From: a virus
DNA length: 64,000 bases
Virus record (IMG/VR): IMGVR_UViG_3300027690_000123
Coordinates: 49,991-113,990 of that record
Strand: one strand, 5' to 3'
Each line of letters opens with the position of its first letter. The stretch's first letter is position 1. Positions 4,354 through 19,560 of this stretch are shown here, in pieces. The notes beneath the pieces were generated by a model. That model was not told where the DNA came from. It was given only the letters and a program-made list of their open reading frames with translations, and made no database searches. The translations under genes were made by a program, and so were the position numbers.

Positions 4354-4380
4354 TCATAACGACTAATATTAAAGTTGGGC
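4354..4380 (+). other. attI-like site / first cassette core (TCATAACGACTAATATTAAAG|TTGGGC)
   Basis: GTTGGGC at 4374-4380 is the exact complement of the first attC R'' (GCCCAAC, 5797); upstream CTAATATTAAAGTT resembles class 1 attI CCTAAAACAAAGTT; no attC hairpin here. Confidence 0.55.
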
Positions 4381-4395
4381 AAATCGAGGCATAAT

Positions 4396-4803
4396 ATGCC
4401 AATCATAATTGTGGCTTTTGAAAATCCTGAGGATATTACTGGTCCCCATTTCGATGGAAAGGTTTTCCGCTTTCCTGTCACGGTTATCGATCGTAATGAT
4501 TTGGGTAAACCACGGCAGGCTTCCAAATCCATCTCATTTCACATCAGAGCTGAAATATCGAGGAGCCGCTTAATTACATGGCATCTTATGGAAGGCGACC
4601 TCATTAAGGTCATGTTCGAGATTGCGAAAGAAAATTTGCTTTCTGAAATAAGCTCCGGAAAATGGAATGGTGAGGACATTGACGTACAAATAAACACTTT
4701 TACGTACAGAGGGGCGTGCCCTTTCGATCCATCGGATATCCAGCAACCTACTGGCGCAGTTTTTGAAATTGAAGTGAAACGCCCTATCGGATTTATTGTT
4801 TAG
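4396..4803 (+). CDS. Cassette 1 ORF A, hypothetical protein
   Basis: ATG 4396 after GAGG; first ORF after the attI-like core. Confidence 0.7.
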   Translation: MPIIIVAFENPEDITGPHFDGKVFRFPVTVIDRNDLGKPRQASKSISFHIRAEISRSRLITWHLMEGDLIKVMFEIAKENLLSEISSGKWNGEDIDVQINTFTYRGACPFDPSDIQQPTGAVFEIEVKRPIGFIV

Positions 4804-5790
4804 GTGGCTAAAATGAAAAAATGCCCATACTGTGCTGAAGATATTCAAGATGCTGCCATAAAATGCCGGTTTTGTGGAGAGTGGATCGGAAAAAGTGAAG
4901 ACGCCATGCAGATCGAAAGCGGCTCCCTTCCTTTCGTAAATGTTGATAAATGCTCCGATAATCCAGACGATGATATATCAAATCCGACTGTAGCAGAGCC
5001 ACATAATGATACCTACTTTGAAAAAGAGAGTAACGGAATTTCTCAAGAGGTTATCTATTCTCCATTATGTCGTAAACCAAAGTGGGGGTGGGGTTGGTTT
5101 TTACTCCTTTCTCTTACTATACCAGGATTTAAGTTGCTCCTTTCGTATGAATCGCCCATAGCATTTCTTATAATGTTTATCGGCTGGATTCTTGTGCTCA
5201 TCTTTTATTTTTGGTTAAGAACCAAATTGATGAAAAGAGAGAAATATGGGCAAAAAGTATGGCTTCAATCTTTTTATTCGGGGCTCTTTGCTTACTGTTT
5301 AGCCCTCCTTTTAATAGGAGTTGGTTCTTTCTTTGGAACAATTCAGGAAAATAAAATGCATTCAGAATTTTTTAAAAATCTTGAGATAAAAGGTGGTCAA
5401 TTAAGGGATAAAGAAATCGAGATAATTAAAGAGATGATTATTGATCCTAAATCGGAAGAAGAATATGCTCAAAATCTCAAATGCGTGAAGGATCTCCTTT
5501 CACTGGAAAACCAGAAATACGATTTTCTCCAAGAGTTCGCCGCTAATATTACTGATGTTGGCAAGCGAAAAGAGAATCAAAACCTTCTCACAAATGCTGC
5601 TCGGCTAAAAGAGCTTTCAAAGCAAAGGTACGATTTAGGTACATCCTATGCAAATAAGTTGATTGAATACCACAATTCGAGGGATGAAGCTTTGCTCGAA
5701 GCAAGCGAGAAAATTATGGTCGACCTTAAGACGGTTAGCGATGAAATTACAGAAACTAGTGACCGTATAAATGGCTTTTTTGAAAAGTGA
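4804..5790 (+). CDS. Cassette 1 ORF B, zinc-ribbon plus three-TM membrane protein
   Basis: CPYCAEDIQDAAIKCRFCGEW; three hydrophobic helices; helical C-terminus. Confidence 0.75.
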   Translation: MAKMKKCPYCAEDIQDAAIKCRFCGEWIGKSEDAMQIESGSLPFVNVDKCSDNPDDDISNPTVAEPHNDTYFEKESNGISQEVIYSPLCRKPKWGWGWFLLLSLTIPGFKLLLSYESPIAFLIMFIGWILVLIFYFWLRTKLMKREKYGQKVWLQSFYSGLFAYCLALLLIGVGSFFGTIQENKMHSEFFKNLEIKGGQLRDKEIEIIKEMIIDPKSEEEYAQNLKCVKDLLSLENQKYDFLQEFAANITDVGKRKENQNLLTNAARLKELSKQRYDLGTSYANKLIEYHNSRDEALLEASEKIMVDLKTVSDEITETSDRINGFFEK

Positions 5791-5796
5791 TGGAAT

Positions 5797-5856
5797 GCCC
5801 AACAAGGCTAATTCAGCCGACGCGAAAAGCTGCGCGGCTGATTAGCGACGTTTGGC
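5797..5856 (+). repeat. attC site 1
   Basis: GCCCAAC...AATTCAGCCGACGCGAAAAGCTGCGCGGCTGATTAG...GTTTGGC hairpin. Confidence 0.9.
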
Positions 5857-5961
5857 AGCAAGAGAGATTCGTATAAATATCTGATGGACTGTGTCAGGCA
5901 ATCGAGTGTGTGCTTTGCTATTTATGAAACCGGGCATCTAAATATAAGGAGGTTCGGGATT

Positions 5962-6078
5962 ATGAAAATAATTACTGTAATCGCTCTAATTTTAGGGGTT
6001 GGTGGAAGTCTTTTATATTTTATCTTGTTCAAGAATCGTATTAAATATTTGACTGACAAAAGAAACGAAAACGAATAA
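5962..6078 (+). CDS. 38-aa single-TM peptide (cassette 2)
   Basis: AGGAGG RBS; MKIITVIALILGVGGSLLYFILFKNR... Confidence 0.45.
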   Translation: MKIITVIALILGVGGSLLYFILFKNRIKYLTDKRNENE

Positions 6079-6207
6079 TTGGTATGGCATGCCGCCGGGC
6101 TTAAGAAGACCTTCCAACCTCATGCTTTAGCTGGACCATTGCACCGCTGCCTCCACGCACCATCAAGTAAGCTTTGTGCCGGGCATGTTTTACTAATGCA
6201 ACGAGTT

Positions 6208-6269
6208 GCCCAACCACCTGCTTTTGGGGACGGCGAAAAAGCGCGCCGCCCCTGAGCAGCCCATTCGGT
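6208..6269 (+). repeat. attC site 2 (R' mutated to ATTCGGT)
   Basis: GCCCAAC...GGGGACGGCGAAAAAGCGCGCCGCCCCTGAGCAG...ATTCGGT. Confidence 0.75.
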
Positions 6270-6280
6270 GTTTATAAACT

Positions 6281-6652
6281 ATGAAATACATCTCACATAG
6301 AGTATCGGGAGTGCCTTATGGTCGCAACAAATCGCGCGGCGACATTAATGCGCCTAAGCGTTGGACCACAAGCATAATTGATCAAACGCGGGGACTACCG
6401 AAGATCGCCGAAGCCTGCATTCTCAGGGTAACGTTTCTTCTGCCTCCTAATAAATTTCCATCTGATTTGCCATTCGGGCCAGACTTAGACAACTTGATGA
6501 AGCGGTTTTCTGATGCACTGAATCAAACGATTTTCAGTGAAACGGATGGAAAAGATTCATGTGTAGTAGAAATGAGTGTACTAAAGACCAGAGTTGAAAA
6601 TGAGGATGAGGCGGGAGCAATTTTCGAAGTCCTGCCTATAAGCATAAAATAG
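6281..6652 (+). CDS. RusA-like Holliday junction resolvase/nuclease
   Basis: PDLDNLMKRFSDAL...KDSCVV matches the RusA D-x-D-N-x-x-K-x-x-x-D-A-L motif. Confidence 0.7.
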   Translation: MKYISHRVSGVPYGRNKSRGDINAPKRWTTSIIDQTRGLPKIAEACILRVTFLLPPNKFPSDLPFGPDLDNLMKRFSDALNQTIFSETDGKDSCVVEMSVLKTRVENEDEAGAIFEVLPISIK

Positions 6653-6653
6653 T

Positions 6654-6717
6654 ACCGAACCTTTGGCTGTTGCGGACTCGGTTCCTGGATTTATCCTGTC
6701 GCTCTTGAAGGTTATAG
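6654..6717 (+). repeat. attC site 3 (degenerate)
   Basis: ACCGAAC...TGCGGACTCGGTTCC...GTTATAG; 15-mer shared with the site near 8144. Confidence 0.6.
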
Positions 6718-6794
6718 GCAGCTAATTGCGCATAAGCCATTTGTAAAGGATAAAATTCAGAAGGAAGGTGGCCTTGATAGTATTGTTCAAGGAT

Positions 6795-7343
6795 ATGAGC
6801 AGGCAAAACAAAACTGGTAAATTAACAGAAGAATGGGTGAAGGATAAAATTACTTCACTTGGATTGATTGCAACCGAGCCGGTCCCAGACAGAGGTGTCG
6901 ATTTTCTCGTTACCTCTGTTAACGATCCTGAGAAAAATTTAAAGATACAAGTCAAAGGGAGAGGGAAAATACAGAATAATAAGCGCTACAGATGGTTTCA
7001 AATTCGAACAACCCAAAAACAACGGGATGAAACTTTAAAAGAAGGTTTACCGCTCAGCGAATCCTGGCGTAAAAAGGCCAACTTGGCTGATATATTTATT
7101 TTTGTATCTGAGATGTTTCATGAATTCTGGATTTTCCAAAGGAAGGACCTTGATGATCTCATCTTGTTAAACACTAAAAAATACGGAAATCGTGCTGACA
7201 ATAAAAATGGAAATCAGGCCGAAATAGATCTTGATTTAGAAATTAATGGAATGCCCCTTACGGAAATATATAGAGACAATCTGGAGAACTGGGGGCTCAT
7301 AACCAGCGTTTTTAGCGGACCGCGAGGACCATGCGTCCGCTGA
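6795..7343 (+). CDS. PD-(D/E)XK nuclease (DUF4365-like)
   Basis: DRGVDFLV...KIQVKG; ORF reads into attC4. Confidence 0.7.
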   Translation: MSRQNKTGKLTEEWVKDKITSLGLIATEPVPDRGVDFLVTSVNDPEKNLKIQVKGRGKIQNNKRYRWFQIRTTQKQRDETLKEGLPLSESWRKKANLADIFIFVSEMFHEFWIFQRKDLDDLILLNTKKYGNRADNKNGNQAEIDLDLEINGMPLTEIYRDNLENWGLITSVFSGPRGPCVR

Positions 7344-7358
7344 AACTTGGCGTTCGGT
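7297..7358 (+). repeat. attC site 4
   Basis: TCATAACCAG...AGCGGACCGC...GCGTCCGCTGAAACTTGGCGTTCGGT hairpin. Confidence 0.9.
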
Positions 7359-7377
7359 CATCAAAAGGAGAAGCACG

Positions 7378-7974
7378 ATGCGAAACACCACGATATCAAT
7401 ATGCCTCTTTGCAGCCATGCTCCTCGCTACGCCGACTTTCGCCGCAGGAAATCAGGATGCTTACTACGGTTTCTTCCCGTCAGAGAAGGGAATTAACCAC
7501 AAGAAATTCATTCACAACATTTTCGGATTCTCGATTGACATCCCATCAACGTGGGTATTCGGGGTTAACGGCACGCCGCCTACGGCGGTTGTTTTCTTGT
7601 ATCGTGAGGGTTTAGTCACGGCCAAGTTCTCAGAGGATTACGAGACAATAGAGATCGGCCAAATTCCATTCGTGGGCATGACACTCACTGAAGCACAGGA
7701 AACCTTCATGCGAGGTATGAGAGGCAAACATCCTAAGCACACCATCGTGAAACAACCTGCTGCAGGAAAGGTCAATGGCTTGCCATCTATGTCGTGGATA
7801 TACGAGTGGCTATCGAAAACCGGATATACAGTCACGGAATATGTCACCCTCGTCCAAAGTCCCAGTGGAATGCGCTCATTGGCGGTCAGGACAACCCGAC
7901 GTGACTATTCATCAAGAATGAAGTTCTACAATGGCATTCTAGAGACTTTTGAACCATTCAGGCCGAAATACTGA
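7378..7974 (+). CDS. Secreted hypothetical protein (PsbP-like fold possible)
   Basis: Signal peptide ending TFA-A; FGFSIDIPSTW beta-rich pattern. Confidence 0.65.
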   Translation: MRNTTISICLFAAMLLATPTFAAGNQDAYYGFFPSEKGINHKKFIHNIFGFSIDIPSTWVFGVNGTPPTAVVFLYREGLVTAKFSEDYETIEIGQIPFVGMTLTEAQETFMRGMRGKHPKHTIVKQPAAGKVNGLPSMSWIYEWLSKTGYTVTEYVTLVQSPSGMRSLAVRTTRRDYSSRMKFYNGILETFEPFRPKY

Positions 7975-7977
7975 AAG

Positions 7978-8051
7978 ACCGAACGGCATGCACAGCGTCG
8001 TGGGTACCCCAGGCCTAAAATGGCCGCGAGAGGCAGAAGCAGGTGTTTGGG
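7978..8051 (+). repeat. attC site 5 (degenerate)
   Basis: ACCGAAC directly after the stop complements GTTCGGT (7352); weak hairpin. Confidence 0.55.
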
Positions 8052-8127
8052 AAAAGACAGGCTTGGACTCTTACATCGCTAAAGAAGCTATTGAAATCGT
8101 GTTTGGCAAAGAATGAGGGAGTGAAAC

Positions 8128-8184
8128 GCTGAAATCGGCCTGCTGCGGACTCGGTTCCCTTGCGCCTGAGGCTGGGCGTTATCC
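8128..8184 (+). repeat. attC site 6 (left core decayed)
   Basis: TGCTGCGGACTCGGTTCC...CCTGAGGCTGGGCGTTATCC; R' GTTATCC complements GGATAAC at 8701. Confidence 0.65.
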
Positions 8185-8205
8185 AAGAATGAAGGTGACA
8201 AATAA

Positions 8206-8685
8206 TTGCATAAATTACAATCGAGTATTATTGGGGCTGCTGGGGAACATTATGTCGCGGCTATGCTTTCCGCTAAGGGGCTTGTTGTTGCTTTACCTCG
8301 GGGTGGAGTCCCATCAACTGATTTAATAGTTACTAGTGAAGTCGGTGGTAGGGCTATTTCAATTCAGGTAAAGACAGGCACTGCCTCGTTTCAAAATAGA
8401 AAGCGAAAACCCGAAGAAAGCTATTATGTATGGGATACTAAATTCAAGGCAATGAACTTATCAAACGATTCAAGTTGGTATGCATATGTTTACTTGAATG
8501 GATGGCCAGTTGAGGGGCAAATGCCAAAGGTTTTCTTTGTACCATCATGCGTAGTCGCAGAATGTATGCGCAAACAGCAAGAATATGGACAAAAGCGCCC
8601 TTTCTTTTGGATGTATGAGCACGAAGCTGAAAGCTACAGGGATTTGATAGGTTGCCAAAAGATCATTGACCACCTACAAGAATAG
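8206..8685 (+). CDS. PD-(D/E)XK nuclease
   Basis: GAAGEHYVAAML...TDLIV...IQVKT. Confidence 0.75.
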   Translation: MHKLQSSIIGAAGEHYVAAMLSAKGLVVALPRGGVPSTDLIVTSEVGGRAISIQVKTGTASFQNRKRKPEESYYVWDTKFKAMNLSNDSSWYAYVYLNGWPVEGQMPKVFFVPSCVVAECMRKQQEYGQKRPFFWMYEHEAESYRDLIGCQKIIDHLQE

Positions 8686-8700
8686 ACGCGAACAAATTTT

Positions 8701-8759
8701 GGATAACCAGGGGCTGTTGATGGACTCGCTTCGCTCGCCACAAAGCCCCGCCGTTCGGC
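8701..8759 (+). repeat. attC site 7
   Basis: GGATAACCAGGGGCTGTTG...CAAAGCCCCGCCGTTCGGC hairpin. Confidence 0.9.
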
Positions 8760-8773
8760 TTGAGGAAAGACTT

Positions 8774-9421
8774 ATGAGTTTGAGTCCTGCTTTCAGACAA
8801 CTCGTGGCATTTGCGAGAAATCATCAAGGCCCTACTCTTCCGACCCTTGGCGGAAGGAGGTCTTTCGCTTTACAGGTCTCGGATGACGCGTTTACATATA
8901 CTCCAGTTACAACACGAAAGTCCCGTCGCCAAGAATTTGTCCACGCTAACCGAGTATTTGAGCGCTACCTTGAAACGGGTTCTCTCAAGACATCCGACTA
9001 TACAGATCTCACGGTGAATTCTTCATATTTATTAGCTCTAATTAAGGCGTACTCAGAAAAGGCGTGGCCGCTGACGCCCAATACGAAGGAGGGCGAACTA
9101 CACGTACTAGAAGGTCTCATTAAGGAACGCAAAATCCTCAGCAGAAGTCGTAATAGGCAACTTGCTGATAGATGCAAGGAAAGGGACAATTACACGTGTA
9201 AAGGCTGCGGCTTTAGTACTAAGATACACGGCAGAAGCGTAGTGGAGTGTCATCATATACTACCTCTTCACGAATCGGATGGCGTAGTGACAGATTTGAA
9301 TGATCTCATTACCACCTGTTCAACATGCCACCGTTTGGTTCATCTCCAGACTCCTCCAATGGATGTTAACAGTTTGGAGAAAATTTTGAGCCGAACAACC
9401 ATCTTCAGCAGACCGCGGTAA
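8774..9421 (+). CDS. HNH endonuclease (McrA-like) with an uncharacterised N-terminal domain
   Basis: CKGCGF...VECHHILPLHE...NDLITTCSTCHRLVH; start moved to ATG 8774 (GAGGA RBS, downstream of attC7). Confidence 0.8.
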   Translation: MSLSPAFRQLVAFARNHQGPTLPTLGGRRSFALQVSDDAFTYTPVTTRKSRRQEFVHANRVFERYLETGSLKTSDYTDLTVNSSYLLALIKAYSEKAWPLTPNTKEGELHVLEGLIKERKILSRSRNRQLADRCKERDNYTCKGCGFSTKIHGRSVVECHHILPLHESDGVVTDLNDLITTCSTCHRLVHLQTPPMDVNSLEKILSRTTIFSRPR

Positions 9422-9453
9422 GATCGCCGCGGCTACTGAGATAAGCGTTGGGC
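9390..9453 (+). repeat. attC site 8
   Basis: GCCGAAC...TCTTCAGCAGACCGCGG...CCGCGGCTACTGAGATAAGCGTTGGGC. Confidence 0.9.
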
Positions 9454-9470
9454 TAACAAAAGAGGTTGTC

Positions 9471-10283
9471 ATGAGAATACTTATCACTTCAATTTGTGCG
9501 TTTCTTTTGCTTAATGGAAGTGCGTTTTCAGGTGACAAATTCATAAAAGCTGAATTTGTGAGTTTTGTAGGCGTTGAACAATTTTCTAACGTAATAAAGC
9601 GAACTGTTTTTTGTGTCCAAACCAAAGGAAACCAAGACGACAATAATCCTAATAATGATTGGGTACCCCTTGGTACCGGCTTCTTGGTCAAATGTGATAA
9701 TGGGATTATTTACGGCGTCACTTGCAAGCACGTTATTTCAAAGACAATTGAAAAAAAAGAGACTGTCTATGCCGCTATCGAAACCGATAAAGGTTTTAAA
9801 CGATCACGTTGTCTGATTGATCACATAGATAGTACTTGTGATTTCGCTATTCTTAGTCCTCAAAAGGAAAAAAATGAAGACTTTAAATTAGAAAATTTGA
9901 CGTTTACTCTAGATAATTTTGCATCCAACGATGAACTGATTGAAGGTCGCGCTCTAATTATACCGGGCTATCCTCTTGGAATTGGCACCATAGGTGATGA
10001 AAATCATCCTGTGATTCGAATGGGTATCATTGCGCAGTACTCTAAAAAAGATTTTTTTCTAATTGATGGAATCGCGAGCCATGGGAATAGCGGGTCTCCT
10101 GTTTTTCTTCTTAATGAAAAGAAAGTTGCAGGAATCCTAACTTCCCACGTTTCGGACTATATAAGCCTGATGGATGAGAATGGGCAACTTTCAGCGAGGC
10201 TTCCTTATAACTCGGGAATCGGCAGAGCCTATGTGATGGAAAAGATACATAATGTGCTTAAAGAATTGGGCGCACCAAAATAA
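9471..10283 (+). CDS. Secreted trypsin-like serine protease
   Basis: Signal peptide; triad motifs VTCKHV, CDFAIL, GNSGSPVF. Confidence 0.88.
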   Translation: MRILITSICAFLLLNGSAFSGDKFIKAEFVSFVGVEQFSNVIKRTVFCVQTKGNQDDNNPNNDWVPLGTGFLVKCDNGIIYGVTCKHVISKTIEKKETVYAAIETDKGFKRSRCLIDHIDSTCDFAILSPQKEKNEDFKLENLTFTLDNFASNDELIEGRALIIPGYPLGIGTIGDENHPVIRMGIIAQYSKKDFFLIDGIASHGNSGSPVFLLNEKKVAGILTSHVSDYISLMDENGQLSARLPYNSGIGRAYVMEKIHNVLKELGAPK

Positions 10284-10286
10284 TTG

Positions 10287-10347
10287 ATCCAACCCATCGC
10301 TCACGGGGACGGCGAGGACCATGCCGCCCGGCAGCTTTTTGTTGGGG
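10287..10347 (+). repeat. attC site 9
   Basis: ATCCAAC...GGGGACGGCGAGGACCATGCCGCCC...GTTGGGG. Confidence 0.8.
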
Positions 10348-10354
10348 CAAGAGA

Positions 10355-11248: not shown

Positions 11249-11255
11249 CATGGAG

Positions 11256-11381
11256 CCCCAACATTGCGCTTCAGCACACAGCCATGGCCGTGGCATTTTG
11301 GACCGGATTAAGTAGCATGAAATTAAACGTATTTTTCAAGTTCAGTGGAATCCCTGGCTGCTGCTGAACTCGACGTTATGT
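11256..11381 (+). repeat. attC site 10 (long, ~126 bp)
   Basis: CCCCAAC..GCTTCAGCA...CAGCCA / TGGCTGCTGCTGAACTCGACGTTATGT with a long variable loop. Confidence 0.88.
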
Positions 11382-11390
11382 CTCTCGATT

Positions 11391-12129: not shown

Positions 12130-12134
12130 TATAG

Positions 12135-12196
12135 ACATAACCTTTGGTTGGTGAGGGACCGCTGGGGGATCGCGGCCCCACAACCAACCGTTATGC
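12135..12196 (+). repeat. attC site 11
   Basis: ACATAAC..TGGTTGGTGAGGGACCGC...GCGGCCCCACAACCAACCGTTATGC. Confidence 0.9.
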
Positions 12197-12245
12197 TTTA
12201 GAGCAAAAAAATGGTAAGTGTTTAAATAATTGTTGAATTTTACGA

Positions 12246-13865
12246 ATGAAAAAGCATGGAAAAAATAAAATTGGACGCAATGATCCCTGTCCATGTGGTA
12301 GTGGAGTAAAGTACAAAAAGTGCCATGGTAAGCATACAGAACATAGGGGACCTCTTAGTTCTGATCAAATCAATAAACTCACGGAATCATATGTGGCCGA
12401 GGAGGTTCGGCGGAAAAGTCAGCAAGGTAAAGGCAGACCTATCATATCAACAGAATTTAAAGGTTATCGGTTAACAGCCGTTGGTAACAGATTACATTAT
12501 TCAAAGAAACATAAGACATTTATTGATTTTCTTGGGAGTTACATCCGCAGTGTTCTCAGCCCGGAGTGGGAAAATTCTGAGATCTCAAAGTCTTTGGAAA
12601 AGCGGCACCAAATTTCAAAGTGGTATGATGCGATTTGTGCACTTCAAAGAGCAACAATGAAAAAACCTCCTGGCGAAATTCAAGATATGCCAATAAATGG
12701 ACTAATATGTTGCTACTACGGTCTGGCATATAATTTGTATCTATTGCAGCACAATGCTGAACTCCAACAATACCTTATAAACCGAATAAAACGATCAGAA
12801 AGCTTCTATGCTGCTTACTATGAGACTTTTGTGGCTGCCTGGTTTATTCTTGCCGGATTTAGTTTGCGTATAGAAGATGAAAAAGATTCTTCTTCAACGC
12901 ATCCCGAGTTTATAGCAACAAGGAACGGCAAAAGCTATTCTGTCGAGGCGAAGTCACGTCAGTTCGGAAAAGATCATTTCGACATTGGGAACCAACTATA
13001 TAACGGTCTTTGTAAAGAGGCTCACCACCAAAGAGTAATTTTTGTTGACATGAATGTGGATGCAAATTTGGATTATGAGGATTTTCGCGACCGGGCATTA
13101 GCTGCTGTTCATGATCGAGAATCGAGACTCACTGTACACGGCCAACCAGCCTCGCCCGCATTTGTATTTTTAACAAATCAACCGTATCACTTATTGCTGA
13201 ATGAAACGCAAATACAGCGGGTATGCCTTTTGGCTGGATTTAAGATTCCAGATTTTGGACATGGCGTTCGTTGTAGCTCATATACAGAGGCTTATAAAAC
13301 TCGCTTAAAGTACTGTGATTTATTAGATGTACAAAAGGCGATGGAGAATTATCGTTTTCCAGTTACATTTGACGGTGAAGTTCCTGAATTTGCATTTGGT
13401 GATGCAAAACGGCGATTTAGTATTGGCGAACGCTTAGAAATTTCAGACGCAACATTCGTAACAATACAATCGGGTATAGTCATCGAGAAAGAGCAAAAAG
13501 CTTGTCTCGTAGTCGATGATTGTAATGGACAGAGCCACTTAATGTTTGTGAAGCTGTCTATAGCTGAATTAGCTGCATATAGATCACATCCAGAAACTTT
13601 TTTCGGACGAGTATTGCAGGCTTCTAATCATATAGAAGATCCAGTGGATTTGTATGAGTTTTATATTAATAGCTGTAAAGATACACCACGTGATAAGCTA
13701 TTAGATTTCATGAAAAATGCCTCTGATTATGAAACAATAAAAAAACTGGCTAATGATGAACTATTATTCGTATATGCTGAAAGACTGACTTTTAATGCAG
13801 TACGTGAAAACGAAATAGAAAGGCATAACAAAGGTCTTCAGGCGACTCGGCCCCTTCGCACCTGA
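12246..13865 (+). CDS. SEC-C motif protein with a putative PD-(D/E)XK domain
   Basis: GRNDPCPCGSGVKYKKCHG; PEFIA...SVEAKSR. Confidence 0.75.
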   Translation: MKKHGKNKIGRNDPCPCGSGVKYKKCHGKHTEHRGPLSSDQINKLTESYVAEEVRRKSQQGKGRPIISTEFKGYRLTAVGNRLHYSKKHKTFIDFLGSYIRSVLSPEWENSEISKSLEKRHQISKWYDAICALQRATMKKPPGEIQDMPINGLICCYYGLAYNLYLLQHNAELQQYLINRIKRSESFYAAYYETFVAAWFILAGFSLRIEDEKDSSSTHPEFIATRNGKSYSVEAKSRQFGKDHFDIGNQLYNGLCKEAHHQRVIFVDMNVDANLDYEDFRDRALAAVHDRESRLTVHGQPASPAFVFLTNQPYHLLLNETQIQRVCLLAGFKIPDFGHGVRCSSYTEAYKTRLKYCDLLDVQKAMENYRFPVTFDGEVPEFAFGDAKRRFSIGERLEISDATFVTIQSGIVIEKEQKACLVVDDCNGQSHLMFVKLSIAELAAYRSHPETFFGRVLQASNHIEDPVDLYEFYINSCKDTPRDKLLDFMKNASDYETIKKLANDELLFVYAERLTFNAVRENEIERHNKGLQATRPLRT

Positions 13866-13880
13866 GACCTGCCGTAGGGC
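13823..13880 (+). repeat. attC site 12 (R' GTAGGGC, mutated)
   Basis: GCATAAC..AGGTCTTCAGGCGA...TCGCACCTGAGACCT..GTAGGGC. Confidence 0.8.
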
Positions 13881-14038
13881 AATACATAGAGGACTGAAAG
13901 TATAAAAATATACATTGGCAATCGATTTCGAAGTTCGAACGGACGTTTTTTATTATGTCTATTGGGACAACTAAACTTTGTTCGGCGTGGCTTAAATGAA
14001 CTCTTGACAAGTTATTAAACGTTCAGGGTGGTGGGAAC

Positions 14039-14656
14039 ATGAAGAATATGTTAAGAAGAATGGGATTTACCAAAGAGGGTAAATTGATGCGGTCTGCAGC
14101 AACCGGAAATTTGAAAAAGGTTGTTCATTTATTGGGGACCGGCTGTGACCCAAATTCGATAACAAATAATGGCTATACTGCCTTAATGGGATCTGCAATG
14201 AACGGTCATATAGATATAGTAGAGGTCTTATTGAATGCTGGAGCAGATCCAAATATTGCTTATCAAGATGGTCGGACAGCCATTTTTGGGGCAGTCCAAG
14301 GCGGGTATTATGAAATTGTAAAAATGCTTTTGGACCGAGGTGCTGAGATCAATATTCACGAATACAATGAAGGGCAAACCCCATTACATTTCGCCGTTCA
14401 TGGAAATCATTTAGATTTAGTTGAGTTATTAGTTGATCATGGAGCAGATATCGAGGCTGGCGAAAAGAGGGGTGGGTTCTCGCCTCTATTTTTTGCAATT
14501 TTAGGTGGTCATTCAAAATCTGTCGATGCACTTCTTAAGCTCGGAGCAGACCCAAATGCTAAAGGCAATGAGGGGGAAAGACCTGCAGAATTGGCATTAA
14601 AATTGGGGTATGATGAAATAGCGAGTATGTTATTCACGAAAGAAATTACGGACTAA
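14039..14656 (+). CDS. Ankyrin-repeat protein (about 5 repeats)
   Basis: GYTALM, GRTAIF, GQTPLHFA, GFSPLFFA, GERPAELA repeats. Confidence 0.92.
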   Translation: MKNMLRRMGFTKEGKLMRSAATGNLKKVVHLLGTGCDPNSITNNGYTALMGSAMNGHIDIVEVLLNAGADPNIAYQDGRTAIFGAVQGGYYEIVKMLLDRGAEINIHEYNEGQTPLHFAVHGNHLDLVELLVDHGADIEAGEKRGGFSPLFFAILGGHSKSVDALLKLGADPNAKGNEGERPAELALKLGYDEIASMLFTKEITD

Positions 14657-14912
14657 TTTTTGATTTAAGACAGTCGGACAAGGTTGCTTTAACCGGATAC
14701 CGTTCAGTGCCTTCGATGATCTCTTGATAGTTAATTTAATCGGCTGCGCCGAACCTGTAATTCCATCTGACGCGGTATAGCTTGGCACTTGCACGCCGGA
14801 TTATCAGGATTATTTAATGCAGCCCCGCCGCGTTCACGGGGGCGTCGAGGACCATACCAGCCCCACAGCACCCGACGTCATATTTTCCCATATCGTTGTA
14901 AAAAGGAAGGTC

Positions 14913-15236
14913 ATGAAAGAACATTTGCTCATTGAGTTGGAACAGGATTTATTAGGAAAGTTGGTAAATGAAGCAAAAGCTAAAGATCAAAGTATATCAA
15001 GCTTTATTAGCTCAGTCCTTTCTATGTTTTTTCGGGCTGGTGGAAAAATTGACCTTCTCGCCTATCCGATGAGACCCGTGGGAACAGATCTTGATGGATA
15101 TCTAAAGGGAATAGAGAGATCTGAAATACTGCGAGCAATAGAGCAATCAGAATCAAAAAGCAATGCGGCTGATTTGCTCGGAATCACTTTCCGTTCTCAA
15201 AGGTACCGGTGCAGTGAGCACAAAATTGATACATAA
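14913..15236 (+). CDS. Small regulator: RHH-like N-terminus plus Fis-type HTH
   Basis: IELEQDLLGKLVNEAK...SISSFIS; ERSEILRAIEQSESKSNAADLLGITFRSQRYR. Confidence 0.6.
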   Translation: MKEHLLIELEQDLLGKLVNEAKAKDQSISSFISSVLSMFFRAGGKIDLLAYPMRPVGTDLDGYLKGIERSEILRAIEQSESKSNAADLLGITFRSQRYRCSEHKIDT

Positions 15237-15248
15237 TATATCGATATA

Positions 15249-15314
15249 ATATAACATTTACCTTTACGCGGACGCGAGGAAGCCCGCCGCGGCCCCTGAA
15301 GATGGCCGTTAAGC
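15249..15314 (+). repeat. attC site 13
   Basis: ATATAAC..CTTTACGCGGACGCG...CGCCGCGGCCCCTGAAGATGGCCGTTAAGC. Confidence 0.8.
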
Positions 15315-15337
15315 TATGCGACAGGAGGAGAGCTGAA

Positions 15338-17026
15338 ATGAGATTCCAGACAACAACTAGACCACTACGTGACCTCGTTCGTGATTTCCACGCCGGTGCG
15401 ATTCTCTTGCCTCAATTCCAACGAGATTATGTATGGAAGGCTGCGAAAGTGCGTAATCTTCTGGATTCTTTGTTAAAGGGGTTTCCCATTGGAGGGTTCT
15501 ATTTGTGGCGCCCAGCAAGCGGTATGCTTGACGCTAAAGCAAAAACTCACGGTGAACAGCGTTTTGCCCCACAATTCGAAGGATATCTTATCGATGGTCA
15601 ACAGCGACTTACCAGTCTGGAGGCGTCGTATGGCCTATATACAGGGGAAGACACGCAGGGTGCTGAACTACGGTGTTATCTGGACCTCTCCGCGCCTGAT
15701 ATAAAGGAAGTAAGGGACACAAGACTATTCGTATCATATGCCGGTAAAAAGTCCATTGCTCGCCGAGTTGAGGCCGGTGATTCCACACTCATTCCTGTGT
15801 CACTTCTCTTTGATGGCCAGAACTACGAACTCCGAAAAATTACTGAGGAGGCATTACGTTTACTTCCAAATTGGAATTCCAAGAGAGTTGAAGATGCCTT
15901 GGAACGGCTCGACCGATCCTTTGGTATGCTTGACCAACAGGTTCCGTGTACTACGGTCATTGATGTTTCGGACAAAGAAGCAGTCGAGGTTTTCAGTCGT
16001 CTTAATAAAGGAGGAAGCGCTCTAAGACAGGGAGACGTGCGCGCTGCTGAACTTGCACGCGGGCGTGCGGTGGATGTATTGAAGCGTATGAGGGATTTCG
16101 TGAGCGGGGAACGCCCGCAGCGGTTAGGGTTTGGTTTTTCATTTGCGTTCCGAGCTTTAGTTCTTTTTCATCGTGGATCAGCGCAATTCAGTACTCTAAA
16201 ACACAACTGGATGGAAGCACCCGGCCCTAACGGTCAGTCTCTCGACCTGTCTTGGCGAGATGCCGAACGTGCTATCGAAAAAGCTCTTGAATTCGTTGAT
16301 ACTTCTATGGGTTGGTCTCGGAGAACATTGGTCCCATCGGCAAATGCCGTTATAATTTTAGCTGCGGCATTCGACAAATCGGAGGGCAGACTAAACGCCG
16401 ATGATAAACAAGCATATCGGCGATGGCTATGCCTGACATCTTTACGTGGCGTTTTCCAAGGTTCCGTTGAAAGCACTATCAATCGATTTCAGCGTGCAAT
16501 TCGGAACAAGAGGACGGAGCTTCCAAAAGCTCTGCTTGAGGCATTAAGACGCGATGAAGCGAGAAAAATTCGATCAGAAGAACTCAACCGATATGCGCAA
16601 CTCTGGGGTCCTGCTACACAAGTTATTCACGCTTGGCTTGTAAACCAGAAAGCCAAGGACTGGCTCAGTACGGAGCCTATCGATGATATTGCTCGTGGCG
16701 GCACACCAAGTCTCCCCGTTGGGGACCTCACTGTTCACCATATTTTTCCACGAAAGCTTCTTACTGAGGTAGTTGATAATCCAGATAAGGCGAATTGTCC
16801 GGCAAATTTCGCCTTGCTAAGCCGGCCGACCAACTCTGAATTTGGAGCCAAGCCACCCGACGAGGTATTGGCAATGCTTACCCCAGACCAGCGGAAAACC
16901 GCCGGTATCCAGTTTTTCGGGGAAGCTGCTGGAGACCGCCTCAAGCCGGACCGTTACAGCGAGTTCTGTGAATGGCGAGCTGGGCGTCTGGCCGACTCAA
17001 TAAATGATTGGCTTGGATTGGTATAA
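15338..17026 (+). CDS. gmrSD: GmrSD-family type IV restriction enzyme (DUF262 + DUF1524/HNH)
   Basis: LPQFQRDYVW, LIDGQQRLTSL, FSRLNKGG, VHHIFP, NFALL; ATG 15338 after AGGAGG. Confidence 0.85.
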   Translation: MRFQTTTRPLRDLVRDFHAGAILLPQFQRDYVWKAAKVRNLLDSLLKGFPIGGFYLWRPASGMLDAKAKTHGEQRFAPQFEGYLIDGQQRLTSLEASYGLYTGEDTQGAELRCYLDLSAPDIKEVRDTRLFVSYAGKKSIARRVEAGDSTLIPVSLLFDGQNYELRKITEEALRLLPNWNSKRVEDALERLDRSFGMLDQQVPCTTVIDVSDKEAVEVFSRLNKGGSALRQGDVRAAELARGRAVDVLKRMRDFVSGERPQRLGFGFSFAFRALVLFHRGSAQFSTLKHNWMEAPGPNGQSLDLSWRDAERAIEKALEFVDTSMGWSRRTLVPSANAVIILAAAFDKSEGRLNADDKQAYRRWLCLTSLRGVFQGSVESTINRFQRAIRNKRTELPKALLEALRRDEARKIRSEELNRYAQLWGPATQVIHAWLVNQKAKDWLSTEPIDDIARGGTPSLPVGDLTVHHIFPRKLLTEVVDNPDKANCPANFALLSRPTNSEFGAKPPDEVLAMLTPDQRKTAGIQFFGEAAGDRLKPDRYSEFCEWRAGRLADSINDWLGLV

Positions 17027-17039
17027 AACTCGATTTATC

Positions 17040-17118
17040 CAGTAACCAAAATACCCGAAAAACGAATACACTCGGACGCGCGAAAGCCCGCCAGACGCAT
17101 TGCAGAAACCCGTTAGTA
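17040..17118 (+). repeat. attC site 14 (degenerate)
   Basis: CGGACGCGCGAAAGCCCGCC shared with attC13; R' GTTAGTA. Confidence 0.55.
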
Positions 17119-17134
17119 TAAGGATTAATACGTA

Positions 17135-18319
17135 TTGATGAAGTTTGAATTTATAAGAGATAAAATATGTAATGAATTTGGGCGGGATCCATTTTCAAAA
17201 TCGGAGTCATGGAACCTGATTAAAAAACGTATTCCAGAAAATCATTGGTCATTCTTGGTTGACCGATCTGGTGCAGACGGATTTCGTAATTATTTGCCTT
17301 CTATTTTTCCTGCCGATCGATTTTATAGCGATGAAGAGGCACAAACATGTTGGGAACGGATTGGTAATTTCTATAAAAACCAGTTTCGCTGGCACGAAGC
17401 CATATCCATCTATTTGTCGCTTTATTATCAACTCCTTGATGCACAAAATTTCGAACAAAAAAGAATTCGGAAAGGCACTCCGCTAGTTTGGATTAGTGAT
17501 TGTTATGCTTCTATGGGGTTTCCAGTACTCTCTAAAAGACACTTAATGCTTGCACTTTGCGAAAATGCCATCCATGAAAAAGGTATTGTTCCGCCAGATA
17601 CTACCGGAACATACTGGCGACTAGTTTTCCGCCATGGCTTACCTCATTCTGAAGTTCAGCGCTACGGTGCGCGTGCATATGAACTCTCAAATCAAAATCA
17701 GCCTGCTGCATTTTTCCCAGAATGGGTTGTTCAGGAACTTGATAATAATTGGATGACTGAAATACCCTCTCCAGCAGAAGCAGGTGTCTGGGTGGTAAAT
17801 GTACAATATGTTAAGATGCTTATGTCAAAATTCGGGGATAAAAAGGGTGAAAATCTGGAGAAACTATCTGAATACCTTATGTCGTGCATGCCTGGTTGCC
17901 GAACATACAGACGACTGAAAACGGAGTCAACGGACTATGATGTAATTTGCTCAATGGAAGGTTTCGAAGTTGATTTTCGATCTGATTTTGGACGTTATTT
18001 TGTTTGTGAATGCAAGGACTGGTCAAAACCCGCAGATTTTACGACGATTGCAAAATTCTGCCGCGTTCTTGATTCTGTAAAGTCAAAATTTGGAATACTA
18101 TTTTCAAAGCGTGGAATTTCTGGCCATGGAAAATCCAAATATGCCGAACGTGAATTGATAAAGGTTTTCCAAGACAGAGGCATGGTAATTATTGTTCTCA
18201 ATGAAGAAGATTTAAATACAGTTGCGAATGGGATGAATTTTGTTAATATGTTACGCATAAAATATGAAACGATTAGGCTTGATTTGAAAAGTTATAGAGA
18301 AGGGAAAAGCGACTGCTAA
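17135..18319 (+). CDS. Mrr-like restriction endonuclease (C-terminal PD-(D/E)XK)
   Basis: DYDVIC...FVCECKDWSKPAD...KFGILFS. Confidence 0.75.
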   Translation: MMKFEFIRDKICNEFGRDPFSKSESWNLIKKRIPENHWSFLVDRSGADGFRNYLPSIFPADRFYSDEEAQTCWERIGNFYKNQFRWHEAISIYLSLYYQLLDAQNFEQKRIRKGTPLVWISDCYASMGFPVLSKRHLMLALCENAIHEKGIVPPDTTGTYWRLVFRHGLPHSEVQRYGARAYELSNQNQPAAFFPEWVVQELDNNWMTEIPSPAEAGVWVVNVQYVKMLMSKFGDKKGENLEKLSEYLMSCMPGCRTYRRLKTESTDYDVICSMEGFEVDFRSDFGRYFVCECKDWSKPADFTTIAKFCRVLDSVKSKFGILFSKRGISGHGKSKYAERELIKVFQDRGMVIIVLNEEDLNTVANGMNFVNMLRIKYETIRLDLKSYREGKSDC

Positions 18320-18406
18320 CCACCGGCTGTTGGCGGAAGCCGAGAGCAGCGCATTTCCATTTGTAGAAACACTGGGCGCCGGCGCCGCGCGGCCCGAACG
18401 TTATTC
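18314..18406 (+). repeat. attC site 15
   Basis: TGCTAAC...GGCCCGAACGTTATTC with a long loop. Confidence 0.75.
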
Positions 18407-18420
18407 CGAAGAGAGAGACC

Positions 18421-19053
18421 ATGAAATGCCTTGGGCGCACAAAAGCATCTAATTTTTGCAAACGATGCACGAGGGAAACTCCGTTCTTGCTTTGTTGGCA
18501 ACATGCCTGGCAGCCGTTTGCAGCAATTGTAGCAATTATAGTATTCTTAGCCGCCATAGCTGAATTCTCAGGATTTACTCTTCGTGATATTTTATCAAAG
18601 ACGAATCATCTATCAAATTTTAACGAAAAAACTAATAGCTCAGATAGAAATCGATACGATAAGTCTGTCCCCAAACGAGAAGGAAATGATGTGCTTGTGC
18701 CATTGATCATACTTCAAGCGATTCCAGATTTTAACAAAACAAAGACTGTATATGCCGCCACATATAAGAACAATTGGTTAAATATCTCTAACCCAGAAGC
18801 TCAATCAGATTTTCTCGAATCCTCGATTTTAAAAAGGGAGGGCAATGTATGGCGTGCCATTGGGCTAGCAGGTACACGTTTTCACCCAGTTCAATTGAAA
18901 AATCCTAATTTAAAAACGAATAAGTTTAAACCAGGCAATCTGTCGTGGCTTCGCATCGAGGATTTGCCGCGTGTTTACGGGGTCACATGGGAAAGGTTTT
19001 CAAGGGAATTTATCGATTCAAATCCTCCTGGCCCATGCTTCTTAATAAGATGA
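18421..19053 (+). CDS. Membrane protein: N-terminal Cys/His finger, TM helix and an unrecognised C-terminal domain
   Basis: CLGRTKASNFC...CWQH; TM helix; C-terminal domain paralogous to 19090..19500. Confidence 0.7.
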   Translation: MKCLGRTKASNFCKRCTRETPFLLCWQHAWQPFAAIVAIIVFLAAIAEFSGFTLRDILSKTNHLSNFNEKTNSSDRNRYDKSVPKREGNDVLVPLIILQAIPDFNKTKTVYAATYKNNWLNISNPEAQSDFLESSILKREGNVWRAIGLAGTRFHPVQLKNPNLKTNKFKPGNLSWLRIEDLPRVYGVTWERFSREFIDSNPPGPCFLIR

Positions 19054-19089
19054 CCATTCACCAATATCTTATTTGAAAAGGATGATGGA

Positions 19090-19500
19090 ATGTCAATTTC
19101 AAAACCATTTGTTTTCAGTTGTTGGTTCTTGTTGATAATTTCTGTGTCCCTTGCCTGTAGTCTATCACCTACTGTCGATGGTGCGGATGTTCTCGTCCCG
19201 GATTTACTTATCAAAGAAATTCCTGGCTACGATTCTACAAAACCAGTATACGCCGCAACCGATATCAATGGATGGTTTGTGAGAGGCGCAAGTTGGGCAA
19301 CAGAGGAAAGGAAAAAAGCCACACAGATGACAAAGGAAGGTGATTGCTGGCGCGCAAAAGGGCTGAAAGGCATACGTTTTCATCCAGTGCAACTCGACTC
19401 GAACGGCAAGCCAGCATGGGCAAAAATAGAGAATCTTTATCCTTTAGATTCTTCGTTTGTTGACAATTCCGGATCGGGTCCATGTTTGAGAGTAAATTAA
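19090..19500 (+). CDS. Secreted or lipoprotein paralogue of the preceding C-terminal domain
   Basis: Signal/lipobox-like VSLAC; DVLVP..IP..VYAAT..W..W..G.RFHPVQL..GPC. Confidence 0.7.
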   Translation: MSISKPFVFSCWFLLIISVSLACSLSPTVDGADVLVPDLLIKEIPGYDSTKPVYAATDINGWFVRGASWATEERKKATQMTKEGDCWRAKGLKGIRFHPVQLDSNGKPAWAKIENLYPLDSSFVDNSGSGPCLRVN

Positions 19501-19511
19501 TAAAGAAAGCA

Positions 19512-19560
19512 GAATAACAATTCAATTCAGCCGACGCAAAAAGCAGCGCTTCTAATTATC
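19512..19560 (+). repeat. attC site 16 (truncated on the right)
   Basis: GAATAAC complements GTTATTC (18400); AATTCAGCCGACGCAAAAAGCAGCGC nearly identical to attC1; no GTT core follows. Confidence 0.7.

Follow-up and report, generated by a model that had tools for sequence, protein, structure and literature searches.

An integrase-less array of about fifteen integron gene cassettes between terL and portal in a temperate myovirus

Integrons are usually seen as travellers on plasmids and transposons, and a role for phages has been raised only recently. Clusters of attC sites lacking an integron-integrase are reportedly called CALINs, a term said to go back to Cury et al. in 2016 (IntegronFinder; see also Néron et al. 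2022, PMC9024848). Such a cluster consists of two or more attC sites spaced by no more than cassette distance, with intI lacking for about 4 kb around. Temperate phages have moron and defence hotspots, for example those of P2 and P4. Phage-borne integrons and CALINs were first reported in 2023 by Qi, Rajabal, Ghaly, Tetu and Gillings (PMC9892861), who described integron parts in temperate and virulent phages and proposed phages as movers of cassettes. The 17 phage CALINs in that work (14 tabulated, 3 drawn) have 2–4 predicted attC sites each, and the one in Shewanella prophage M16-3 lies between tail, capsid and terminase genes. The sole long array, with 16 attC sites, was that of Vibrio phage Va_90-11-286_p16, which is accompanied by intI and is a slice of a host chromosomal integron. 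Sedentary chromosomal integrons are presented in a recent report (bioRxiv 10.1101/2024.07.02.601686) as stores of anti-phage defence cassettes; a counterpart deals with mobile integrons (10.1101/2024.07.02.601719).

The array described here is an unusually large and clear example of a kind already published, the phage-borne CALIN (PMC9892861). It resembles CALINs in general by its co-oriented attC sites, the cassette-sized ORFs between them, the lack of a nearby intI and the decay of some sites, and differs from the usual ones in lying in a phage genome rather than on a chromosome or plasmid and in its size, about 15 sites being large for a mobile element. Like the 2023 cases it consists of integron parts carried by a phage; unlike the CALINs among them it has about 15 cassettes without intI, belongs to a Desulfobacterales phage, sits in a family-wide hotspot and has boundaries verified one by one. 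With sedentary integrons it shares compact nuclease- or defence-type cassettes and a host family rich in chromosomal integrons, whereas its attC sites vary in length (58–126 nt or more) and sequence and one cassette only gives a strong defence match. As in the P2/P4 hotspots, a fixed site between conserved genes holds cargo that differs from relative to relative and includes restriction-modification (R-M) and defence genes; unlike them, the site lies between terL and portal, is flanked by promoter-associated palindrome copies and is loaded with integron cassettes. The locus is far cleaner than most published phage CALINs, since its boundaries can be checked and its cargo slot is known by comparison. 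It offers a system for asking whether phages move mostly nuclease-type, probably defensive cassettes between bacteria, and whether an integrase-less prophage array is used in trans, with IntI in about six of ten host-family genomes sampled.

The window analyzed is a stretch of 64,000 nucleotides (positions 49,991 to 113,990 of IMG/VR record IMGVR_UViG_3300027690_000123). The array is carried by a temperate myovirus, more than 110 kb in size, of sulfate-reducing sediment bacteria; its relatives occur as prophages in MAGs of Desulfosarcina and Desulfobacterium (Desulfobacterales). Family matches on the record identified terL, portal, major capsid protein, tail sheath and tail-tube initiator genes, and a replication module and a tyrosine integrase adjoining a tRNA fragment are also present. 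Open frames were found in every packaging, head, tail and replication gene tested, and the phage is apparently intact. No attL/attR direct repeats were found between the two ends of the record, and the prophage probably extends beyond the right end. The left 6 kb of the record contain a broken terminase from another prophage; the region therefore gathers phage debris. We know this sequence from a metagenome provirus contig alone. A single genome among 65 from the host family carries TerL, and a TerL-based search of viral contigs for the locus yielded no relatives. Published phages offered only SPO1-like TerL proteins with about 39% identity, too distant for comparison of the locus.

The array is part of a 22 kb insertion composed of a 0.7 kb leader, the cassettes and a type III R-M system (Table 1). 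The limits of the insertion, 3694 and 25816, were mapped against relative L002, in which the site is empty. DNA homology to relatives on the terL side ends at about 3632–3693, depending on the relative, and homology to L002 resumes at 25816. A motif found phage-wide flanks the island, as a degenerate copy on the left and an intact copy at 25820–25833 on the right. The intact copy follows σ70-like −35 and −10 elements, a candidate promoter of the portal operon judging by its sequence. The zinc-ribbon and portal genes stand directly 3′ of terL in relatives and are conserved. The preliminary description had taken the flanking terL and portal genes to be intact, with which their phrog_675 and phrog_12 matches agree. 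It had also placed the array between them; this is its position, but it takes up only part of the interval, with the R-M pair separating it from portal. That pair (Pfam matches ResIII and N6_N4_Mtase) belongs to the island and is not a cassette. Its Res protein is about 80% identical to proteins of many phyla, and the homologues, considered as a source of an R-M copy with uninterrupted flank, were all at this level and too distant for comparison of DNA flanks. Since neither the leader nor the R-M module is a cassette, at least one insertion without IntI is needed.

Table 1. Features of the island and its borders (window coordinates; bit scores are those of the covariance model)
Feature	Position	Strand	Evidence or remark
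terL, terminase large subunit, left border of slot	2067–3677	+	phrog_675 E 2.8e-119; Pfam GpA_ATPase
Degenerate copy of phage-wide motif AAGTAAYYAATTAC, left flanking repeat	3688–3701		repeat family D4 and pattern search
Leader, non-coding, AT-rich (GC 0.38)	3702–4373		no ORF >65 aa
CALIN, ~15 co-oriented cassettes	4374–19575	+	R′/R″ chain, covariance model matches, folds
Cassette starts	4374, 5850, 6263, 6711, 7352, 8178, 8753, 9447, 10341, 11375, 12190, 13874, 15308, 17112, 18400		
Exact 7-mer core/R″ pairs	4374/5797, 7352/7978, 8178/8701, 8753/9390, 10341/11256, 11375/12135, 12190/13823, 18400/19512		
Decayed attC sites	6654–6717; part of 7978–8184; ~17040–17118; 19512–19575		
attC, aadA7-like, 60 nt	5797–5856	+	48 bits (training set)
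attC, R′ mutated to ATTCGGT	6208–6269	+	66 bits (training set)
Decayed attC, R″ ACCGAAC, R′ GTTATAG, L′ lost	6654–6717	+	by eye and fold; R″ complements 6263 core
attC, untrained	7297–7358	+	34 bits, E 3e-7
Long or compound attC region	7978–8184	+	R″ ACCGAAC at 7978, R′ GTTATCC at 8178
attC, weak by model	8701–8759	+	10.8 bits; R″ GGATAAC complements 8178
attC	9390–9453	+	63 bits (training set); bottom-strand bulged T and A
Cassette c8: S1-type serine protease gene and its attC (10287–10347)	9447–10347	+	homology to L032
Long attC, 126 nt	11256–11381	+	single hairpin; R″ CCCCAAC complements 10341
attC	12135–12196	+	57.6 bits (training set)
Weak attC, R′ decayed to GTAGGGC	13823–13880	+	10 bits; R″ GCATAAC complements 12190
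attC, untrained	15249–15314	+	17.4 bits, E 0.005 within array
GmrSD-family/HEC-05-like nuclease, cassette gene	15302–17026	+	Pfam GmrSD_N E 4.5e-24; PADLOC HEC-05 E 2.6e-32, full length
Decayed attC remnant ending in R′ GTTAGTA	17040–17118	+	by eye; missed by model
Long attC, 93 nt, R′ GTTATTC	18314–18406	+	R″ TGCTAAC vs GTTAGTA at 17112, one mismatch
Last attC, full length, mutated L′ arm, R′ GTTGATA	19512–19575	+	R″ GAATAAC complements 18400
Type III R-M pair: res 19778–22600, mod 22581–25586	19778–25586	−	PADLOC MTase_III E 8e-163, REase_III E 4e-10
Promoter-like TTTACA-17-TAAAAT, then intact palindromic motif, right flanking repeat	25790–25835	+	seen by eye
Small zinc-ribbon gene 25849–26064 and portal 26033–27760, right border	25849–27760	+	portal phrog_12 E 1e-55

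The leader ends in ...TCATAACGACTAATATTAAAG immediately 5′ of the first crossover point. The left edge of the array falls exactly on a crossover point and has TCATAAC-N15-GTTGGGC in front of it. No Rfam match and no plus-strand σ70 consensus were found in the leader, tblastn revealed no IntI remnant in it, and it has no significant similarity to relatives, to the rest of the record or to the intI-attI regions of MAGs G001 and G002. attI sites are class-specific and cannot be recognized by sequence alone.

The terL-portal interval was compared in 13 relatives, where it is either empty or differently loaded. The gaps measure 245, 279, 292, 436, 1170, 1489, 1724, 2129, 3558, 3618 and 9859 bp, those of 245–436 bp being empty slots; in the contigs of the other two relatives no portal was found downstream, and the gaps exceed 10,000 and 2,600 bp. 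At 22,355 bp, the gap analyzed here is the largest seen in this phage family. Loaded slots hold genes for adenylosuccinate synthase, lysozyme, HU, histidine kinases, CheB/CheR and a transposase. The covariance model found attC in the slot of none of the 13 relatives, and a model-free hairpin scan of four of their cargo intervals revealed no array. The cassette-capture hotspot proposed earlier is not supported as such by these data: the terL-portal slot is a general, family-wide cargo hotspot, for which integron cassettes are one among several kinds of load.

From 4374 to 19575 run about 15 integron gene cassettes, all in one orientation and parted by attC sites. We count six strong attC sites, about five weaker or long ones and about four decayed ones, close to the approximately 16 of the preliminary description. 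An attC site is an imperfect palindrome of about 57–141 nt located 3′ of an ORF, with R″ (RYYYAAC) and R′ (GTTRRRY) as its end boxes. Recognizable boxes are present in 11 sites of 58–126 nt, each located immediately 3′ of a plus-strand ORF. Region 7978–8184 is probably two sites, fused or decayed, and an attC expected near 14657–14816 is absent. The eight pairs of cassette core and closing R″ that had been called perfect are all exact 7-mer complements. Four pairs called near are also real, with one or two mismatches or an altered leading base: 5850/6208 and 17112/18314 have a single mismatch each, 6263/6654 is perfect except for a leading G replaced by A, and 9447/10287 has two mismatches. 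In 9 of 14 cassettes the core that opens the cassette is, at its four variable positions, a perfect complement of R″ in the cassette's own attC, while random re-pairing of cassettes gave a mean of 1.15 perfect matches and never reached 9 in 100,000 permutations (P<1e-5). Within a single physical site R″ and R′ match poorly, which is the pattern expected if it is always the following cassette that completes R′. Every well-preserved cassette bears the G|TT scar of IntI crossover.

The sites are predicted to fold into an R box, a spacer, an L box with bulged bases and a loop, and the RNAalifold consensus structure, which is a prediction and not structure probing, contains 8 covarying pairs. Sites 5797–5856 and 9390–9453 have a predicted bulged T and a second bulge placed as in attC-aadA7 (sequence from Table S3 of PMC9892861); the former is identical to attC-aadA7 at 41 of 60 positions, with the bottom-strand bulged T in common. 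Mean column identity among five good sites is 67%, and several other sites could not be aligned. The uniform attC sites expected of a fragment of a sedentary chromosomal integron were not seen in the array, lengths ranging from 58 to 126 nt and more. Decay appears to be under way in part of the array, chiefly its distal third. The last attC has 84% identity to the first attC core.

A crude scan of the record for AAC...GTT hairpins was unspecific and caught terminator-like hairpins, and a covariance model was used instead. This home-made model was trained on five sites of the array itself, an alignment of seven by MAFFT having been structurally inconsistent. The high scores of those five are therefore circular, and only untrained sites and matches in other genomes count as evidence. 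The model recovered two untrained sites of the array (7297–7358 and 15249–15314) and gave no score better than 16 bits in the remainder of the 120 kb record. In Desulfosarcina MAG G001 it found at least seven co-oriented sites, 9–16 kb from a bona fide intI and on the opposite strand. Rfam, which is without an attC model, gave no family at gathering and E-value thresholds.

The preserved sites lie at most 1.8 kb apart, and intI is nowhere on the record: the TIGR02249 profile had no match in its 119.7 kb, and tblastn with two Desulfobacterales IntI proteins gave nothing better than E 0.59 and nothing in the leader. The phage's own integrase, of 532 aa, is not IntI-like. The array is therefore a CALIN and not a complete integron, and any integrase must work in trans. 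IntI is encoded in both prophage-bearing MAGs and in 37 of the 61 host-family genomes sampled. The interpretation offered in the preliminary description is supported as to true IntI-type cassettes within a phage, the need for any integrase to act in trans and a likely host lineage rich in IntI, and is not supported as to a hotspot specific for cassettes.

Cassette c8 has 82% DNA identity to positions 182–1067 of contig L032, with unrelated flanks. The homology starts at GCG|TTGGGC and stops inside attC; the L032 attC scores 31 bits and keeps the R″ GCCCAAC. Judged by these boundaries, c8 is a discrete mobile unit that occurs in different arrays, as demonstrated for this one cassette alone. A marsh metagenome contig has the core of site 6208–6269 in common and continues with GTTGGGC and a different cassette.

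We conclude that a genuine integrase-less array of about 15 cassettes, in a 22 kb island, very probably fills the terL-portal slot of this temperate myovirus of more than 110 kb. Intergenic hairpins are common, and the crude scan did catch unrelated ones elsewhere on the record, so that phage terminators or REP/MITE-like intergenic repeats with chance AAC...GTT ends had to be considered in place of attC. This explanation is scarcely credible, as terminators cannot give cassette-specific complementarity between distant cores, the model also gives matches beside a genuine intI of a different genome, one cassette has a second occurrence whose homology begins at G|TT, and the first site resembles attC-aadA7. 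It is also improbable that the array represents a host insertion into a dead prophage, or was joined on during assembly, and is never packaged in virions. The metagenomic provirus origin of the sequence, the neighboring broken terminase and a terL-portal gap unmatched in the family would fit such a reading, but the tested phage genes are open throughout, structural and packaging genes from terL to the tail-tube initiator are matched, and the corresponding slot of relatives can hold as much as 10 kb or more. Moreover, the junctions are covered by tiled Logan contigs whose depth is even, about 38–46 (listed pieces longer than 800 nt), and independent k-mer contigs join terL to leader and leader to array through 30-nt overlaps. 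Depth is 40 at terL, 38–46 in the longer array contigs and 42 in a 54.8 kb contig running from 12272 through the R-M genes; because the covering run may be the source of the phage's own assembly, this depth evidence is not independent.

As to origin, we tentatively prefer import of the array ready-made from a bacterial integron or CALIN, which we consider not far short of an even chance and at least as likely as loading in place. Loading in place, conceivable though on the doubtful side, would mean that host IntI acting in trans seeded the first cassette at a GTT secondary or attI-like site and added the others singly, leaving a live dock. Both ends of the array are crossover points, G|TTGGGC (4374) on the left and the last R′, G|TTGATA (19569), on the right, and the 680 bp leader holds no intI remnant, while the first cassette gene of G001 is only about 290 bp from intI; yet an exact-crossover left edge of this kind fits import as well as secondary-site seeding. 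The best attC sites occupy the proximal two thirds and decay is distal, as entry at the leader end predicts, but a donor integron could equally hand down such a gradient. Logan contigs break at 4339–4368, just 5′ of the array start, though the break falls 9 nt before the divergence point of an alternative first cassette. The frequency of IntI in the host family also favors loading in place, whereas the lack of attC in the slot of relatives (by the model in all 13, by the model-free scan in four cargo intervals) argues against it, and an exact-match search of viral contigs gave neither an empty-site junction nor a leader-end match. It would moreover take about 15 independent insertions plus separate import of leader and R-M system. 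The island itself probably entered the slot by ordinary IntI-independent recombination. Whatever the origin, the six or so intact attC sites should still be usable in trans in an IntI-encoding lysogen, allowing cassette excision or exchange. That the prophage array is today a live dock, at which lysogens with IntI swap cassettes between host integron and phage and from which virions spread defence cassettes among sulfate reducers rich in integrons, seems to us rather unlikely; if true, the phage would carry an extension of the host integron that has no integrase of its own.

Of all cassette genes, that for the GmrSD/HEC-05-like nuclease matches a defence family most strongly; other cargo includes HNH and PD-(D/E)XK-like nucleases, a serine protease and an ankyrin protein. 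One strong and several weak PADLOC matches suggest that the cargo probably protects the lysogen from other phages. No homologues of cassette proteins were found in the host integron loci retrieved. A promoter scan of the array gave fewer sites than shuffled sequence and was uninformative. The GC content of individual cassettes ranges from 0.37 to 0.535, compared to 0.53 for the phage backbone.

The limits of the insertion were set by comparison with an empty-site relative (L002), in which 245 bp separate terL from a small zinc-ribbon gene that precedes the portal gene. Homology between the window and L002 ends near 3632-3693 and returns at 25816, which gives an insert of 22.1 kb. This island begins with an AT-rich leader, for which no RNA family match and no homology to any fetched sequence were found, continues with the cassette array and ends with a type III restriction-modification (R-M) pair. 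The GC content of the array is 0.43 overall (0.37-0.535 for individual cassettes) and that of the phage backbone 0.53. Two copies of the phage-wide motif AAGTAAYYAATTAC bracket the island; the left copy is degenerate, and the right one lies downstream of a good -35/-10 pair and upstream of the portal operon. The palindrome GTAATTAATTAC is positioned just 3' of sigma70-like -35/-10 boxes ahead of phage operons, is kept in related phages, and is probably an operator or a late-promoter element; two of its copies stand on either side of the island.

Features of the island, the phage and related loci (window positions unless stated otherwise; the window is positions 49991-113990 of the 119,703-bp IMG/VR provirus record)
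Feature	Position	Strand	Remark
AT-rich leader	3702-4373		GC 0.38; no gene
GmrSD/HEC-05-type nuclease			one cassette, full length; PADLOC E 3e-32
S1 protease			cassette; related to defence-associated proteases, E 6e-15
Ankyrin protein			cassette; PDC-M72A, E 8e-32
Last attC	19512-19575		full length, L' arm mutated
Type III R-M pair		-	Mod E 8e-163
Type III Res	19778-22600		
Palindrome GTAATTAATTAC	25822, 28248, 42358, 46019, 56183		degenerate copy at 3690
Palindrome GTAATTAATTAC, elsewhere	record ~7735, ~118520; L001 21227; L002 11650		L001 and L002, related phages
Logan contig breaks	4339-4368, 6816-6845, 8088-8117, 9454-9483, 9636-9665, 12272-12300		30-nt overlaps
828-aa gene	30679-33165		tandem ~150-nt units x5 at 31007-32699, 63-75% identity
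978-aa structural-region protein	35377-38313		C-terminal PARP-type catalytic domain, Pfam E 2e-9
Split GpA-type large terminase	record 374-2019 (L004)		separate ATPase and nuclease ORFs
tRNA 3' fragment	record 6060-6100 (L004)	-	T arm, acceptor, CCA
Tyrosine integrase, 532 aa	record 6119-7717 (L004)		
DnaE fused to uracil-DNA glycosylase (UDG) domain	record 24217-27678 (L005)		
GyrB split by intein	record 33557-36562 (L005)		HNH domain in intein
Portal gene with intein, relative	L031 15037-17646		
queD, queE, folE, queC, queF-like gene, two ParB-like genes	L027 2347-6280		upstream of terL; also L001, L002, L003, L028
Integron locus of Desulfosarcina MAG	G001 C3:2188000-2207999 (L024); intI at C3:2206329-2207270		

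All sizeable ORFs from 4374 to ~19575 are on the plus strand; between them stand short, GC-rich, imperfect palindromes with RYYYAAC at the beginning and GTTRRRY at the end. The preliminary description had paired the core at the left of each cassette with the R'' box that closes it. All the pairs that it listed were checked, and its eight perfect pairs proved to be exact 7-mer complements. Of its four near pairs, two carry one mismatch, 9447/10287 carries two, and 6263/6654 is perfect but for the leading G. When the four variable core positions were considered, 9 of 14 cassettes matched their own R'' perfectly at the start; random re-pairing of starts and ends gave a mean of 1.15 perfect matches, and none of 100,000 permutations reached 9. 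R'' and R' within one physical site agreed poorly (0-3 of 4 positions). In integrons the TTRRRY of each R' is part of the next cassette, and poor agreement within a site is therefore predicted by the mechanism. By the established mechanism of integron recombination, the complementarity pattern is the one that IntI crossovers at G|TT leave behind. The array starts at one crossover point, G|TTGGGC, and ends at another, G|TTGATA, which follows the last site. About 15 attC sites were counted (six strong, about five weak or long, about four decayed), with one expected site near 14657-14816 missing; the proximal two thirds of the array have the best-preserved sites.

Rfam contains no attC family and gave no matches. 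A covariance model (R1) was built from five well-formed array sites with an RNAalifold consensus comprising R box, spacer, L box with bulges, and loop; covariation was observed at 8 pairs. With filters off, R1 matched the untrained sites 7297-7358 (34 bits, E 3e-7) and 15249-15314 (17 bits) and weakly recovered two more array sites; outside the array, no score exceeded 16 bits anywhere in the record, window included. The 60-nt site 5797-5856 is identical to the paradigm attC-aadA7 (sequence from PMC9892861 Table S3) at 41 of 60 positions. The bottom strands of the two are predicted to fold alike: a T bulges out of GCG-T-CGGCT, and another bulge follows six bases further along. Two tests were independent of the array. 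The Desulfosarcina MAG G001 has a true integron integrase (470 bits against TIGR02249, cut-off 265), and at a distance of 9-16 kb from it, on the opposite strand, R1 detected at least 7 sites that share one orientation. The protease cassette (9447-10341) has a DNA homologue, 82% identical, on contig L032; the homology runs from GCG|TTGGGC to inside the attC, with unrelated flanks on either side. The L032 attC scored 31 bits with R1 and keeps the R'' GCCCAAC, and thus the near pair 9447/10287 is a mutated copy. In addition, ~31-nt cores of two array attC sites stand beside other cassettes on marsh metagenome contigs.

Chimeric assembly at the junctions had been named as a danger to this reading. 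Over the stretch that begins 8 kb upstream of terL and ends at 4368, the record is matched at 100% identity by a Logan contig of a sediment run; the array itself is tiled by additional contigs, each overlapping the next by 30 nt. Of the two junctions, the one covered is the left (terL-leader-array); the right one is at 25.8 kb. Depth is even (40 for the terL contig, 38-46 for the longer array contigs, 42 for a 54.8-kb contig from 12272 through the R-M genes), which is internal consistency rather than independent confirmation, since the run may be the record's own source. At 19527 a contig joins whose preceding sequence is foreign. The contig breaks may reflect other arrays in the sample with common attC or gene words, or a phage population varying in cassette content.

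The element carrying the array is a large temperate myovirus. Genes for an HD-domain protein, a ParB-like protein, a small-terminase-like protein and TerL (phrog_675, E 3e-119) lie upstream of the array, and portal (phrog_12, E 1e-55), major capsid protein, tail sheath and tail-tube initiator genes downstream. The rest of the record encodes ribonucleotide reductase, primase and helicases besides DnaE-UDG and the intein-containing GyrB. The tyrosine integrase gene adjoins a tRNA 3' fragment, probably one att site. At the other end of the record no full tRNA and no matching repeat were found, and the phage motif is still seen at 118.5 kb; the prophage therefore probably continues beyond the record (source contig, 149,313 bp). 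The split GpA-type terminase is left over from another prophage, a degraded one that adjoins this one. The PARP-domain protein has a homologue at the same place in L002, and the 828-aa gene probably encodes a fibrous or decoration protein.

No intI was found in the record, either with TIGR02249 or by tblastn with two Desulfobacterales IntI proteins (nothing better than E 0.59), so the array is a CALIN and not a complete integron. TerL is only ~39% identical to those of published phages, namely SPO1-type terminases; closer relatives (54-83%) occur in metagenomes and in prophages of MAGs labelled Desulfosarcina sp. and Desulfobacterium sp. IntI above the cut-off is encoded by both MAGs with related prophages and by 37 of 61 genomes sampled from the Desulfosarcina MAG's family, several of them with multiple copies (up to five). 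This family is an integron-rich lineage, on which we found no literature report in that respect, and is likely the host lineage of the phage. Since IntI is common there, its supply in trans in a lysogen is plausible.

Among 13 relatives, the terL-portal distance is 245, 279, 292 and 436 bp in the four empty ones, 1170, 1489, 1724, 2129, 3558 and 3618 bp in six, and 9859 bp in one; two contigs are unbridged (>10 kb and >2.6 kb). Among the products of the cargo genes are adenylosuccinate synthase, lysozyme, HU, histidine kinases, CheB/CheR and a transposase. R1 detected no attC in the 13 intervals; when four intervals with cargo were scanned for hairpins without a model, a single isolated palindrome emerged, in L003. 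This phage alone among the set compared has cassettes in the slot. The proposal of a cassette-capture hotspot was therefore not upheld: the slot is a general hotspot, filled with general cargo or nothing in the relatives.

How the cassettes reached this slot can be read in two ways. We tentatively favour, at slightly below an even chance, the view that the array was already assembled when it was imported, together with its flanks, from a bacterial integron or CALIN. The leader and the R-M pair need one non-IntI insertion in any case, attC is absent from the slot in every relative, and the proximal-distal decay gradient could have been inherited from the donor. A reading that we consider quite possible, if less so, is that host IntI seeded a secondary site in the prophage, followed by serial insertions. 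Hosts commonly carry IntI, and the 680 bp before the first cassette contain no intI remnant; in the Desulfosarcina integron, ~290 bp separate intI from the first cassette gene. An empty-site junction was sought in viral contigs and a donor among host integron loci and Res homologues, and neither was found.

Phage-borne CALINs are already known as a kind. A screen of 10,705 phage genomes yielded three complete integrons, one In0 element and 17 CALINs, the latter with 2-4 predicted attC each (Qi et al. 2023, PMC9892861). One of these CALINs is surrounded by a Shewanella prophage's genes for tail, capsid and terminase, and five of six sites tested recombined with attI1 under IntI1 (PMC9892861). 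The sole long array, with 16 attC, belongs to a Vibrio anguillarum prophage; it includes intI and represents a segment of the host's chromosomal integron (PMC9892861). The present array shares integron cassettes in a phage with the published CALINs but has ~15 attC; unlike the Vibrio array, it lacks intI. What is new is how large this integrase-less array is, the clade to which the host belongs, the proof by comparison that the site is a family-wide cargo slot, and the verification of cassettes one by one.

Besides the nuclease, the protease and the ankyrin protein, the cassettes encode an HNH protein, two weak PD-(D/E)XK-like proteins, a RusA-like protein and a SEC-C-motif protein; the remaining cassette genes had no family match. 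Together with the R-M pair, this content would fit a putative role in defence or superinfection exclusion. The queD/queE/folE/queC/queF-like set upstream of terL in the phage family constitutes a 7-deazaguanine pathway and suggests modified phage DNA, which bears on the GmrSD-type and R-M cargo. Thousands of proteins share ~78-81% identity with Res; their sources span many phyla (Chloroflexota, Chlorobaculum, Thermochromatium, Acidobacteria and others), and some are named BPTD_3080 family. The type III R-M pair looks like a very widely exchanged module.
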